A stretch of DNA of 5,634 nt from Takakia lepidozioides (taxonomy: Eukaryota; Plantae; Bryophyta): NCBI GenBank assembly GCA_030704615.1, contig JAKLZA010000343.1:1-5634 (forward strand). The letters are read 5' to 3'. The position numbers and the translations under genes were made by a program. Shown here in pieces: positions 1-5,634 of the stretch; the stretch's first letter is position 1; every line of letters starts with the position of its first letter. The notes beneath the pieces were generated by a model. That model had not been told where the DNA came from. It made no database searches and saw only the letters and a program-made list of their open reading frames with translations.

Positions 1-525
1 CAAAACGAGTAGGCAAGAACTGTCTAGGACGACACTATCCACTGCTTTGCACAAACCCCTGCTTTTCTTTGTTTAAAAGCAACCGGGGGAGAAGAGAGGA
101 GACTAAATTCCGAAGCTGCAGCCTCCGCATAAAATGCAATTTAAATCTGCTTTCGGACTTGGGAAAAAATGCGGGTTTGCAAATAAGGGAGAACCGTGGC
201 GACCTTGGCTCCTGTACCCACAAATAAACAATTTAAGTCCAACATACATTCAGCTGGCCCAACTTGTGCAGGAAAGATGGAAATGGAAGGAATGGCGTCG
301 TCGTGTCAGTGATTGCCACAACTGAACTAGCCACTTATTCACATGAGAAATCGGAATCACATCCAGAGCATCGGGCTTTCCAGATCCGCTCCACAACAAT
401 GTTCTCAGTCTGGGTCGAATGCGATGAACCCCCAGACAGAGGTGCAATGACTTGAGAGTAGCTGCTCGTCCCCCCACCATCCCAAAAAATGCCTGCCTGC
501 ATACTTGCATGCATGGAAGAAGCCC

Positions 526-621
526 CTGCAACAGTGCAAATGGATCCACGAAACAAAGTAAGAAGCACAATCTGAAGGCAAAGAAGTGCACCCAAGAAAT
601 GGAATTTGATTGGGCACCAAC
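526..621 (-). other. Spliceosomal intron (96 nt, phase 1) splitting the SAM-binding glycine motif
   Basis: Minus strand reads ACAG|GTTGGT...T-rich...CTGTTGCAG|GG. Removal gives S-M-G-T-G-A-S, restoring a motif I-like GxG loop in frame. Confidence 0.75.
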
Positions 622-905
622 CTGTTCCCATGGACAGGTTTTCCCACATCCCACCATGCCAGCTGCATATCTCAATCAAAGTCTGCATGAAAGCGGGGAA
701 CTTCTCCCGAGCACCTCTCATGGAATGCCACCAATTTTTTTCAATGTCTGGGAGGAGTCACATAGTTGTGGATAACATCGGATTCCACAGGATTACATTC
801 CGGGTCTATGTGAAGCCCCCCTTCCCAAACGTCGAAATGGCCAACATGAGCAGGAGTGGTGTCTGACCGAATTCGAGCAAGACAAATGGCCTTGAACACA
901 TGTGT

Positions 906-985
906 CTGCAGCAACACCAATGTTAGAACGTTGTTAAGGAGGCAATTCCACGAAACAATAACACACCAAAAGCCCAGGTGAGTAC
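906..985 (-). other. Spliceosomal intron (80 nt) in the methyltransferase-like gene
   Basis: Minus strand reads AG|GTACTC...TTCTAAC (branch-like)...GTTGCTGCAG|ACA. It is T-rich and separates two protein-like blocks. Joining them needs one extra base just before the donor (agcagaag vs agcaagaag). Confidence 0.68.
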
Positions 986-1220
986 CTTCTGCTGGGAAAC
1001 TCTACCCTAGATAGTGGCAGGGTGTTGACACAGGTCCAAATTTTGCGGATTTTGAACCCCCGGACTTCATGTAGCTGTGAAGCATCCGGCGGGAATGCCA
1101 TGTCCCTCACCTTGGAAAATCAAAGTGACCCAGCGTCAGACAGAAACTTGTTGCTGAAAGAGAAGGCCCACTGGCAATAAAGTGGATTATGAGCATTCCA
1201 AGCTAGAGTCACATCTGTGG

Positions 1221-2033
1221 AAGATGAGCACCGCCTTCCGACCTACGGCCAAACAGAAAGAGTGAATTCCGTAGTGAAGCAGATGTTGCGGAATTACGTG
1301 TCGGCAGCCAATCAGACTGGGTGGAACACTTAGACGCGGTAGAGTTCTGTTATATAAACACAGAACACTCCGCAACGGGAGTTTCCTCCTTTTCGTATTG
1401 GTCTATGGAAAAGCACCTCTAGTGCTGACAAGTTGGGCCGCCCAGGACGTTGAGGACCGGCAGTAGCGGCGGTACTGGAAGAACGCGAGCGTTTGTTGAA
1501 GCTCGCAAATACAACATTGCCCAAAGCGAGGAAACGGTAAAAAGGCAAGCGAATCGGAAGCGGAGGGAAGTGAGTTTGAGGCAGGCACGGAGGTCCTGGT
1601 TGAACATCAAGAATTTCCGACTACCTCCGGAAGTGAGTCCCAAAATTTGTACCTCCGTATACGGGACCTTTCTCGCATCCTAAGGTTATGAACGAGAATG
1701 TGTATGAATTGGAGCTGCCGCGGCAAACAGCAGGTGCATCCAGTATTCCACGTCTCCCTTTTGAAGCCTTACTTCAAAGATGAAGCGCGTCCGAATCGGC
1801 ATCAATTGTTGCGTCCGCCACCTGTTGCTTTTGGATCATGAAAATGAACCTGAGTACGAGGTGGAGGCAGTACTTAAGTCGAGGAGTTTCAAGAACCGAG
1901 AAACGGAGTATCTCGTCAAATGGAAGGGCTATCATCATGTGGAGGCATCTTGGGTGCGTGCTCAGAAATGAGAAACGCATCCGAGGCGGTTGTAGTTTTT
2001 CGAAGGGCGACCTCAAAAGCGAAGAAGCGTTGA
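1221..2033 (+). mobile_element. Ty3/gypsy chromovirus pol 3' fragment: integrase core C-terminal half, GPY/F module and chromodomain (5'-truncated, frameshifted)
   Basis: Stitched translation: KMSTAFRP/GQTERVNSVVKQMLRNYVSA/DWVEHLDAVEFCY/NTEHSATG/SPFVLVYGKAPL...KRQANRKRREVS...NIKNFRLPPEVSP/KFVPPYTGPF/..NENVYELELP/VHPVFHVSLLKPY...EYEVEAVLKSR...YLVKWKGY..EASW/MRNASEAVVVFRRATSKAKKR, stop TGA 2031-2033. GQTERVN carries the E of the integrase DDE triad. Confidence 0.93.
1852..2000 (+). other. Integrase-fused chromodomain with all three aromatic-cage positions (group I type; Tcn1/Galadriel-like)
   Basis: EYEVEAVLKSRSFKNRETEYLVKWKGYHHVEASWV in ORF 1780..1971. Y of EYEVE, W of VKW and Y of KGY occupy the cage positions. 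Confidence 0.88.
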
Positions 2034-2055: not shown

Positions 2056-2066
2056 GGGGGAGGAAA
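2056..2066 (+). other. Polypurine tract of chromovirus A
   Basis: GGGGGAGGAAA lies 22 nt after the pol stop codon and directly before TG at 2067-2068. Confidence 0.72.
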
Positions 2067-2507
2067 TGCATGCTTAGCCCGAGCCTTAGCTAGCTCAGGA
2101 ATCCGATTGCAAAAACTTGTATTGTAACAAAAATTTGTTATAAAGGAAATGGGTTTCCAAATGGTTGTGTGTCCTATTTTGTTTGGAATGGTGATGCGCT
2201 ACCAAGGTGGTTGCCTTGTAGTGCGGGCTAACACGGAAGCTATGTGCTTCCGTTCACGTACTATAATCGTATAGCCTCGGGACGAAGTCGTAGTGCGGCT
2301 TCGACGTGTTCCCGTACCTCAGGCCAGCATTCCAAGACGGACCTAATTGGTAGTGATTGGGGCGCACGGTTGGTTCAGGTTATCTTCCTAGTCAAAGGGG
2401 TTTGAGGTGAACCCTTGTGCAAAGTGATGCCAAAAGCGGCATCAGGAGCGATCGCAAGCAATGTTGTTGCAGTAAGGCGATTCGATCCTCGGGGAGGATC
2501 GTTCCTT
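2067..2507 (+). repeat. Probable start of the 3' LTR of chromovirus A; right boundary not identifiable
   Basis: Begins with TG immediately after the PPT, non-coding, dense in short inverted repeats. No partner LTR or matching CA terminus in the window, so the end coordinate is approximate. Confidence 0.45.
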
Positions 2508-2599
2508 GACCTTGAAGAGGCCAAGAAGAGTGCACTGGGAGGAGCTTGAGAGGCTCCACCCCTGGCCGGGACTTGGAGGAAGTGGCCGAACTAGCTAGT

Positions 2600-2753
2600 G
2601 GAGAGAGTTAGTCAAGTGTGGGTTTGGTTCTTTGCCATGGGACGCCATGGTACGGAAACAAACTCCTTGAATGTGGGCCACAAACTTGGATGTTCGTTTT
2701 CTACAAAATGGACAAGTCGATGAGGACATCGACTCCCTGTTGGTAGGGGTGTG
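2600..2753 (+). mobile_element. Degraded 3' internal end of a second chromovirus-like element (B): possible chromodomain remnant, hairpin and G-rich PPT-like tract
   Basis: ttagtcaagtg...ccatgggacgcca-tgg can be read as LVK(W)...PWDA.W with indels (weak). It is followed by the hairpin GTCGATG-AGGA-CATCGAC (2716-2733) and GGTAGGGGTGTG directly before TGTCGC at 2754. Confidence 0.4.
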
Positions 2754-3471
2754 TGTCGCGGCCCTTTGCCTTGAGGGCAGGGGGTCGGGACACATGAGGG
2801 GCTGCCCCTGTGGTGGGGCAGCGGCAGCGCAGCGATAGGTAGGGGGGCTGAAAGCACCCTTGAGAGTGCTTGGGCACTCAAGGAGGCGGAGCGCTCACTA
2901 GGTGGAGCCCCGCACACCGGGTTGCGGTGGGGGTGGCTCCAAGGGGTGGTGTTAGCTTAGCGGGACTTAGTGGGGGTGGCATAGGACTCACCATGGGGGC
3001 GGAGACCTCGTGGTGGGAGTCGTGGGGAGTCTTGGGACTCATCACGGTCCATAGGGGCTGTGGTGAGTGGGCCAAGACTCACCGCGACTCATCACCGGGA
3101 GTCGGGGTTTCGTGGTGGTTCGCCATAAATGGCATGGCTGTTGTGAACCCCCGTGGATAGCTACAGAAGTATATATAGGGAGTAGTAACTCCGAGAACGG
3201 TGCAAGCCCGTTGGTGACCAAAAACTAGTGAGTAAGCGAGCGAGCCGGAAAGCGACCAAGAGTGGGGGCTGTTCCGGACTACCAACTACCAAAGGGAATT
3301 CCCCTGGTTCCAAATCGGTGAGGGTTCTTTGGGAGTTCAAGGGGGACCGTTATGCCCCGGTGAGCAGCCGAAGCTCCAAGTTGGTCCGGCGGCCAGGTTG
3401 GGAGTTAGGCGAGCGCATCAAGCTAGCAACTATGACTTGAAGGGGAGCTTACCGAAGTGAGGCGTGCGACA
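2754..3471 (+). repeat. LTR of element B (718 bp), TG...CA with 6-bp inverted termini
   Basis: Starts TGTCGC (2754-2759) and ends GCGACA (3466-3471), a perfect inverted pair. Preceded by a PPT-like tract, contains TATATATA at 3170-3177, and its 5' part is G-rich. Confidence 0.65.
3170..3177 (+). promoter_or_regulatory. Candidate TATA box of LTR B
   Basis: TATATATA followed by GGG, an isolated AT run in a GC-rich LTR, about 300 nt before the LTR 3' end. Confidence 0.55.
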
Positions 3472-3586
3472 TTGTCGCTCGGACAACCGCACTCGCTGCA
3501 TTCCTTCCCCAGCGTTTGCATCCCCCTTCTCTACCAGGGAGCTTGCCCGCACGCCATCCTGGGAGTCTTGTGTGCACATCTCCCAT
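3472..3586 (-). pseudogene. Possible N-terminal stub of a minus-strand gene cut by LTR B (candidate start of the methyltransferase-bearing gene)
   Basis: Minus-strand ATG at 3586 in the strong context CCGCCATGG. It reads MGDV/..QDSQDGVRASSLVEKGDANAGEGMQRVRLSERQ without a stop up to the LTR edge. Same strand as the methyltransferase fragment. No recognisable domain. Confidence 0.25.
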
Positions 3587-3672
3587 GGCGGAAAACCCGA
3601 GCGCTACAGTGTAACTGCCCTCCTCACGAGCATAGAGCTTCATTTCCGTGCAGAGGGGACATCTGCCGGGTG

Positions 3673-5634
3673 ATGGAGAATATTTGTGCGTTCGATAACC
3701 ACCTGAAACCGGGGTCGGTTTTTTTGGAGGAGGAAAGGAATGACTCAAACGGCGTTGTTGTCGAGAGTATTGTTGTGCTCCACGATGATTTCGGCGATGG
3801 CAGGGAATGGCGAGTTCCACCATCGGACAGCGTCATATACAGGGCTGTTGGGGACTTCATTTGCCCGCCAAATGCACCTTCTATCCTGGCGCCTTCCACG
3901 AAACAATCCGCGAATCAGAGAGTGGTTACCTCAAAGAGAGAAGTCCGCAACGAAGTAAATCCAGAGCCGAACCCATCCATGAAGACGAGCGAGAACCGGG
4001 TTGTTCACAACCTGTCCGACTCAGACGAGGTCAGGAAGTTCCGAGGTCGTCTTGGAGATCAGGCAAGTCCTCAATGGACGTCAGTGGACGAGGGAGTCAT
4101 ATATTCCCAGCACGAGCACCGCAGTTCGATCTATTCTTGAAATTCTGCGAGGGCTTCACATGGAGGGACACCGCTCGGAGCTGGCCGGGCTGGACTACAC
4201 AGTTTGCAATTAAATCGGTTACATGCTTCCCGCAGACGTCGACGGTAATATCTTCTTTGAGTTCCCTCCTCGGACGGACTACTCGAGGGCGTCCGGAATG
4301 TTGACATATGGATAGAAAACATGATGGTCATCCTTGGTGCGTCACCAAAACCACCAGCATGAAGATGCTCGATGGTGTGCGGGTGCGCTACGTTGTTTGT
4401 GGGTGCATTGCGGTGTTTCTCCCCAAAACTTGCTTCCATTTTAAATCCAGAGGTCACAGGAACGAGACCGATTGGACAGGCACAGCTCATCAACCATTTC
4501 GTGCTCAGGAGAAGGTTCCGACTCCACATTTAAGGTGCGCATTGCAAAGAACCACCCACTCTGCATGTCTATTTGTAATGCCAAGCAGTTCTATGGTGTG
4601 GCAGCACCGTTTCCCTGACCTCACCTGAGCTTGCATACGTTTTGGTTCCCATTGTCACAAATTGGCGAGAGGGAACTCGCGGGAGGCTTGCCCACGAGAC
4701 AGAGCAGTTTTGTTCAGGAAGAGGTTAAGTTGAGACCGGGTGCCAAACCCAAACAGATACAGCTCCAAGCCGCCCATAAGATGGCCTTGGCCAGAATTAT
4801 GTCGAAAGACGGCTCCGATAGAGTTCCTCTCGATGAGAAGGAAATGGAGGCATTGCTGGAGTCGGTGTCCCACGTATGTTCACCGAATGTCCGAAACCAC
4901 ATTGTCTCATGTAAACAGAAAATTGGCGTGGCTCAGATATGCACTCCATTCTGGAGGTGAAGCGACGATGTGGAATATGACTACATTCATGGAAGTAGGT
5001 TTCCAGGACAAGGGACTGAGGCAGATCGTTGTTTTTGTGTATTCAAAATGTCCACGTGTGGACGTGGCAGCGGCGTCGAAACTGGTCGACAGGATGACTA
5101 GTGGGGACTTGTCAAATAGTTGGGTCCTGTTCGACCATATCAAGCGAATTACAAATCAACCAGTGGGTGACAATGGGTGCACATGTCTACGACACCCACT
5201 GCAGGATGCTAATGACAATTGTTTATTTGTGAGATGAAAGGAAAGGACACACAATCGGAGATGCTTCTTTGGCAGGGAATAAACGAACAATGGCCAGGCG
5301 GGATTGCAAGGCGGGATTGCCCCCTCCCAATTTCCGTGGTTTCATGGCGGACAACGCACAAGCAAATTGGGCTGCCATCCGAAGGGTGTACGGGCAAGAC
5401 CCCAATGTTTCCCATGGAAGGCAAGGAGAGATCTTGTTGGTTCCATTTTCTGCAGAGTCTTTCGCAGTACACAATCAGGCTCGTGGCGCCAGATTTCAGA
5501 GAGGAGCACCGTTCCATGTGTCTTGCGTAGAAGCGCGCTCCCACCTTGGATGATGCAGAGACACAGTTTGCATGTATACGGGCTTGGTGGACATCGTCAG
5601 GTGCTGTAAGGAAATCAGACGAGGGAGCAATGGT
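3673..5634 (+). mobile_element. Mutator-like (MULE) DDE transposase gene, frameshifted, running off the right edge of the window
   Basis: Stitched from ~4130: SILEILRGLHMEGHRSELAGLDYT/FAIKSVTCFPQT/DGNIFFEFPP.../MDRKHDGHPWCVTKTT...C...RNETDWTG...HRFPDLT*ACIRFGSHCHKLARG (Cys/His, WRKY-GCM1-like Zn domain).../YDYIHGSRFPGQG...VFKMSTCGRGSGVE/LVDRMTSGDLSNSWVLFDHIKR (D at 5133-5135)/WVTMGAHVYD...ICEMKGKD...FRGFMADNAQANW (D at 5350-5352).../PMEGKERSCWFH (CxxH, 5435-5446)...IRAWWTSSGA. D..D..CxxH is the established MULE-type signature and the catalytic E would lie beyond the window. The start is uncertain: ATG 3673 or ATG 3979 in the open, low-complexity frame 3457..4140. In-frame stops at 4626-4628 (TGA) and 5528-5530 (TAG). 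Confidence 0.85.

Follow-up and report, generated by a model that had tools for sequence, protein, structure and literature searches.

The window, a stretch of 5,634 nucleotides from Takakia lepidozioides, raises the question of what lies hidden over its positions 335..1217, where a sequence-only reading had proposed a spliced gene for a beta-class amino-methyltransferase-like protein with divergent SAM-binding motifs, cut off where the sequence switches to a retroelement. At issue are the existence of such a gene, the fold and family to which it belongs, and whether the intact members of that family would methylate DNA or put the fold to another use.

An intron-split gene remnant and its relatives

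Taken alone, the open frames of the window find no relative, so the gene claim was testable only through relatives. With the window frame 338-757 as a query, no match was found in PDB sequences, 1.8 billion representatives, longer proteins, the Atlas, or phages, and Pfam returned no methyltransferase match for 17 window frames. Relatives were sought with a seed motif, PWRGAREK, taken from the loose ends of sister short-read contigs over the window. The scan returned mostly noise; among the matches listed, true relatives amounted to 11 of at least 119 metagenome loci, one of at least 120 genome loci, and none of four viral loci (the 11 metagenome loci and one genome locus are the 12 homologous loci referred to below), and no related locus was found in the viral contigs searched. 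An exon alignment in which one row came from the window was used as a query and returned 57 proteins. The 45 of these that were inspected, along with their cluster members, were all unnamed and mostly exon fragments running into introns, and clusters held up to 28 near-identical members.

A profile of 299 positions was built from 61 relatives, with the window's own sequence excluded, and aligned locally to window 300-1300 with any GT-AG intron and frameshifts allowed. The profile matches the window at 1203-985 (i-E 1e-6) and 727-620, and the spliced alignment picked two introns unaided (985..906 and 621..526), plus four frameshifts (near 986, 754, 719, and 516), for a score of 49.2 bits. Control scores were far lower, including 60 shuffles (mean, 14.5; maximum, 20.1), the opposite strand (13.2 bits), and eight other window segments (12–16 bits), and the alignment still scored 34.7 bits when the seed motif was scored zero. 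On this sequence evidence the hidden gene is real and intron-split, which bears out the spliced gene first read by removing introns and correcting indels, and the junctions proposed then are those that the relatives-only profile chose, with introns in the same place in relatives.

The remnant occupies the minus strand, and both introns (80 and 96 nt) were seen to be GT..AG on inspection of the sequence. It opens with a 5'-truncated exon (986..1220) that starts ~10–13 codons after motif IV (S-T-D-V..W-N) and extends through motifs V–VII; the first profile match ends at the donor of the intron that follows, tblastx matches this exon to three of the homologous loci (L033, L074, and L082), and three single-base indels interrupt it, two that compensate each other (near 1122/1103) and one near 990. 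Intron 1 (906..985, 80 nt, minus strand; phase 0 in relatives) is present at the same place in eight of the 12 homologous loci and absent with read-through in three (L082, L098, and L198), with L029 uncovered at this position. The middle exon (622..905, minus strand) holds motifs VIII and X with a variable region between them (motif X reads PWRGAREK in relatives), then motif I as far as a split glycine, with single-base losses near 758 and 720 and a WENL that is specific to this copy. Intron 2 (526..621, 96 nt, minus strand, phase 1) splits the glycine codon of motif I, as had been proposed, and the same codon is split as G|GT in 10 of the 12 homologous loci. The next exon (339..525, minus strand) carries the rest of motif I, followed by motif II (RHFLG..) and a low-complexity tail, has a tblastx match to L037, and shows sister-copy variants at 518, 483, and 476.

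The region originally assigned to the gene holds, with its ends shifted, as homology extends to ~1220 and the gene probably continues below 335 past a third intron at ~338..212. This candidate intron (approximately 212..338, minus strand) has a donor reading AT in the window copy and GT in sister copies; all contigs covering position 338 carry the variant, and a donor is found at this position in six relatives as well (L074, L032, L029, L025, L037, and L198). A candidate last exon (100..211, minus strand, limits approximate) would follow, and multi-copy depth reaches ~78–100; a profile test of protein homology for this exon was negative, with 34 of 200 shuffles reaching its score. Junction reads at 985/906 and 621/526 were looked for in two runs guessed to be RNA and were not found, as no contig from these runs joins across either intron; one contig reads into the start of intron 1, and in another, from a run guessed to be RNA, ~52 letters and not 179 separate positions 208 and 388. 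As a separate observation, the CG observed/expected ratio is 0.48 in window 100-1210 compared to 0.66–1.04 in the other four window parts.

Predicted fold, conserved motifs, and selection

Structure was modelled for a relative with the domain in one frame (P0046) and not for the window copy (pLDDT 84.7; the low-confidence stretch is read-through of a retained intron 2). A Foldseek search with this model placed M1.HpyAVI and CcrM at the top (E 2.7e-11), and a wide structure search gave a match to CcrM (Z 19.7, rmsd 3.2, 219 residues aligned), the kind of Rossmann-fold methyltransferase match on which the sequence-only reading had staked its proposal. The top 20 structures were beta-class and MT-A70 enzymes, followed by a drop to Z 6.6, and viral models and the Atlas agreed with the fold (all listed Atlas matches, PF01555). 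An hhalign comparison to 20 bacterial sequences set DVPE on DPPY with the order IV..X-I-II kept (E 5.8e-6), and the window copy, through the spliced alignment, is collinear with the beta-class motif order. The best PF01555 score was below the gathering cut-off (19.6 bits vs 26.7; 27 relatives), family profiles gave no significant match to PDB sequences, and the family profile against YhdJ alone was weak. Together, the model, the structure matches, and hhalign support the beta-class fold and motif order claimed for this gene, and the relatives are predicted to share a permuted Rossmann fold of the beta-class amino-methyltransferases. Two bacterial genomes (G010 and G012) had 43 and 25 PF01555 matches, respectively.

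The most intact family member seen (L198, 1-3103) is multi-exon with GT-AG introns and a DVPE motif IV. This locus comes from a cyanobacterial genome bin and was rejected as a bacterial homologue because of its GT-AG introns; it is likely mis-binned plant DNA. Intact relatives also have a charged linker and, spread across several additional exons, an N-terminal region that is conserved; the L198 exons had no Pfam match, and the N-terminal region, for which all loci end before the gene start, gave a model with pLDDT 61.5 and a best Z of 5.2. In L037, a 31-bp tandem repeat (3421-3711; 9.4 copies, 95% alike) lies in an upstream intron of the gene. By tree and BLAST, the nearest relatives of the window copy are P0056 and P0037, neither of which covers motif IV. 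Horizontal acquisition, which the sequence-only reading had assumed in taking the introns as a sign of long residence in a eukaryote, is plausible from the fold, and a donor was not identified in a quick tree that places the family on one side of a branch (DN4MT1 and N4CMT left out; L037 row partly misframed).

The divergent motifs described for this gene, WENLSMGTG in place of motif I and WWGD at motif II, are correct as literal readings (the latter through a local frameshift in exon 339..525) and do not hold as properties of the gene. Loose ends of sister copies from four runs read VVDLSMGTG, VVDLSIGT, and KVVD, and sister-copy variants at 483 and 476 lead to an acidic motif II; judged against these copies, both readings are damage or sequence error confined to the window copy. 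Across the family alignment, after masking, 51 of 53 rows have the motif I aspartate and 28 of 34 the motif II glutamate. The phenylalanine of DPFxG is replaced in the family, according to hhalign, and two tryptophans are near-invariant (16/16 and 56/57). Intact relatives keep the SAM-binding residues and likely still bind SAM and DNA.

By alignment, the true oddity of the family is its motif IV, D[VI]PE, which lies outside the window. The 16 aligned rows comprise DVPE (n = 7), DIPE (n = 5), DVPK (n = 1), YVPE (n = 1), and out-of-frame readings (n = 2), such that the first aspartate and the proline each occur in 14 rows, DPPY or SPPY in none, and an aromatic at the fourth motif position in none. 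For the window's own subfamily, D[VI]PE is suggested by L037 and others. The available text of PMC4738411 describes a mechanism for [DNSH]PP[YFW] in which the target base stacks on the aromatic, and in N4CMT the change of SPPY to APPA, which alters two residues and not the tyrosine alone, abolishes activity (PMC8885841, in the part available). As D[VI]PE replaces DPPY, the relatives would probably not methylate; to the choice between an active and a catalytically dead protein, which could not be judged from the window, the family thus brings a motif IV that reads D[VI]PE and not DPPY/SPPY.

The exon spanning motifs VIII-X-I is under strong purifying selection (pS 0.70–0.77 vs pN 0.09–0.11 in deep pairs), as measured over 86 codons of which eight were fixed by the search, with motif IV outside the exon. 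Omega was 0.04–0.06 in deep pairs of one subfamily where it was computable, many pairs being saturated, 0.17–0.38 in shallow pairs, and 0.34–0.44 between subfamilies.

Truncation and decay of the window copy

Homology to the gene ends at ~1220, where a multi-copy sister contig that matches 1127-1220 departs from the window. Motif IV would be expected near 1250-1260 and is absent, along with the whole N-terminal half, which supports the claim that the catalytic motif was lost where retroelement sequence takes over. The exons carry at least eight single-base indels, and the window copy as assembled is dead. Compared to sister contigs, gaps outnumber substitutions (two substitutions and five gaps over 396-567; one and six over 2028-2197), so part of this damage is likely assembly error, and none of the short-read contigs listed spans the 1220/1221 junction.

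The sequence that abuts and truncates the gene (1221..1971, plus strand) is a frameshifted 3' part of what, by its motifs, is a Ty3/gypsy chromovirus integrase, followed by a chromodomain (PF00385, E 3e-10 in 1765-1968). Its depth in short-read contigs is ~100-fold that of the methyltransferase region. The chromodomain was considered as part of the methyltransferase-like gene and rejected, given its location on the other strand and this ~100-fold higher depth. A purine tract followed by TG (2056..2068, plus strand) is, by its sequence, the likely start of the 3' LTR. The stretch 1221-2300 as a whole has the character of a very high-copy chromovirus-type fragment, 5'-truncated within the integrase, and its many single-base gaps relative to sister contigs suggest an error-prone assembly.

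Multi-copy state and probable transposon context

Window 78-1220 is multi-copy, with a summed depth mostly in the thousands in run X1 compared to ~100 at 1-77 (a short-read depth and not a copy number), and 165 contigs with many variants over the window were obtained from one run. In one of the 12 homologous loci among the matches listed, most of which are short, the gene (L074) is flanked on both sides by arrays of an 85-bp repeat in inverted orientation (E 4e-30), at 5-235 and 2592-3386, with 2.7 and 9.4 copies; subterminal repeats of DNA transposons lie in such flanking positions. No flanking inverted arrays were found in the window, nor were element ends or a target-site duplication for its copy.

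Further along the window, a frameshifted transposase-like gene (3436..5634, plus strand, start approximate) shows a D..D..C-x2-H pattern in its frames and runs off the window. It faces away from the methyltransferase-like gene, with the retroelement in between, and is presumably Mutator-like. Pfam, a homologue search, and an IS256-like comparison gave no match for it, and none of the homologous loci searched holds both the methyltransferase-like gene and this transposase-like gene. Between the retroelement and the transposase-like gene lies a GC-rich stretch with a hairpin and a pair of inverted repeats, each of 19 nt (2483-2501 and 3017-3090). The multi-copy state, the inverted arrays of L074, and the transposase-like gene facing away make it likely that the methyltransferase-like gene is transposon cargo.

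Competing explanations

The explanation that we favour, at roughly an even chance of being right, is that the gene is cargo of a plant DNA transposon: a spliced, multi-copy pseudo-methyltransferase gene whose product still binds SAM and DNA and works for the element that carries it. Intact relatives would encode a large protein ending in the predicted beta-class fold, probably a dimer by analogy with other beta-class enzymes, that would bind SAM and DNA without methylation. The fold and the conserved N-terminal domain may bind repeats in the protein's own element, and the service rendered could be the assembly of the ends for transposition or the shielding of those ends from host silencing. 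For the window copy, a chromovirus retrotransposon would have inserted nearby, and a later deletion (or misassembly) would have taken away the 5' half of the gene, motif IV included, together with the retroelement's 5' part. A distinctly less probable version, still to be taken seriously, keeps the transposon cargo and makes the protein active, with the aspartate and proline of motif IV activating the amino group, a conserved tryptophan stacking the base instead of tyrosine, and 6mA, 4mC, or another mark being placed on the element's DNA or RNA. The retention of the motif I and motif IV aspartates, the motif II glutamate, and the motif IV proline at the frequencies given above fits such activity, as does the strong purifying selection; either near-invariant tryptophan could stand in for the lost aromatic, and self-modification has been proposed for algal accessory proteins in the text available of PMC12477816. 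However, the fourth motif position, the site at which the mechanism in the available text of PMC4738411 stacks the base, is aromatic in none of the aligned rows, and the SAM pocket may persist for structural reasons.

Two other explanations give the transposon or the decay a smaller role. That the family was domesticated by the host after a single acquisition from bacteria or phage, as with DN4MT1 of Marchantia, and was copied by ordinary duplication or passive capture with the elements as a repeat-rich background, is improbable. It would account for intron positions conserved across deep divergence, for an intact multi-exon member (L198), for the purifying selection, and for the lack of a transposase in any homologous locus among the matches listed, but it sits poorly with the many divergent, broken copies per sample, the inverted repeat arrays that flank L074, and the lack of a spliced product among the 45 of 57 database matches inspected. 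Very unlikely, and concerning the copy instead of the family mechanism, is a window copy less broken than it appears, with frameshifts that are mostly long-read assembly errors, a misjoin at 1220, and a real locus that may be intact. The excess of gaps over substitutions relative to sister contigs, the occurrence of several indels in base runs, and a best short-read run that contains 0.26 of the window's words all point this way; against it, substitutions occur at conserved sites too (476, 699, and 338, the donor of the third intron), and genomes of this kind commonly hold nested elements that are truncated.

Comparison with known systems

The closest structures are beta-class PF01555 enzymes (CcrM 6PBD, M1.HpyAVI 5HFJ, M.BceJIV 8URK, M.MboIIA 1G60, M.PvuII 1BOO, and E. 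coli YhdJ), which have the same predicted fold (Z 17.6–19.7) and with which the family has in common the permuted motif order, the motif X helix, the motif I aspartate with its glycine loop, and the motif II acid. The family differs from these enzymes in D[VI]PE for DPPY/SPPY, PWRGAREK for HPTQKP, 10–22% identity, spliceosomal introns, a long N-terminal extension, and a Pfam score below the cut-off.

PF01555-type accessory proteins of transposons are already known from algae. As described in the available portions of the sources, Sola1-1_Ec32 of Ectocarpus, an algal DNA transposon, has an accessory protein with ParB-like and N4/N6 methyltransferase domains (PMC12477816), and PAG2 of the Bostrychia Plavaka is an accessory protein with a PF01555-type domain (bioRxiv 10.1101/2025.02.11.637652). 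Compared by description, these resemble the present family in a PF01555-type domain within a large protein, a multi-copy and probably mobile context, a gene opposite a transposase-like gene (an arrangement that the window fits, with a retroelement in between), and repeat arrays nearby (as in the one member, L074). The family differs from the algal proteins, so far as those partial descriptions go, in its likely land-plant host and non-canonical motif IV; a ParB or SET domain was not found in it by Pfam on the L198 exons or from the N-terminal model. The transposase-like neighbour in the window presumably differs from the algal elements as well, looking Mutator-like and not Sola or Plavaka.

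Within seed-free plants, the beta-class fold is shared with MpDN4MT1a/b of Marchantia, a host enzyme that writes 4mC (bioRxiv 10.1101/2021.02.12.428880, as far as its text was available); DN4MT1 is active, with TSPPY, two genes, and no extra domains (available text of PMC8885841), in contrast to the D[VI]PE, many copies, and long N-terminus of this family, a comparison made by description in those sources. The N4CMT of bdelloid rotifers, a 4mC writer with SPPY and a chromodomain of its own (PMC8885841 and PMC10406627, both in part), is likewise a eukaryotic, intron-bearing representative of the beta-class fold (structural match 8S9N, Z 16.8), whereas the chromodomain in the window lies on the other strand and belongs to a retrotransposon. 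No description of a D[VI]PE plant family was found in the literature searched (main texts, without supplements), nor in the parts available of PMC4738411 and PMC12344493.

Implications

The window copy is a marker of the family only and carries no evidence of 4mC or 6mA in the host. Because neither Pfam nor standard gene calling picks the family up, surveys for 4mC and 6mA writers in plants miss it. Should the conserved D[VI]PE protein prove to serve its transposon, it would be a land-plant example beside the small number of elements believed to bind or mark their own DNA, and it would allow the need for the aromatic of DPPY to be tested in nature. Tentatively, in seed-free land plants an old transposon lineage may have rebuilt a phage-type DNA methyltransferase into a strongly selected D[VI]PE protein. 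Such a protein would shield or assemble its element as a SAM-gated, DNA-binding pseudo-enzyme, or it would be an enzyme that writes a mark of self by a new active-site chemistry.
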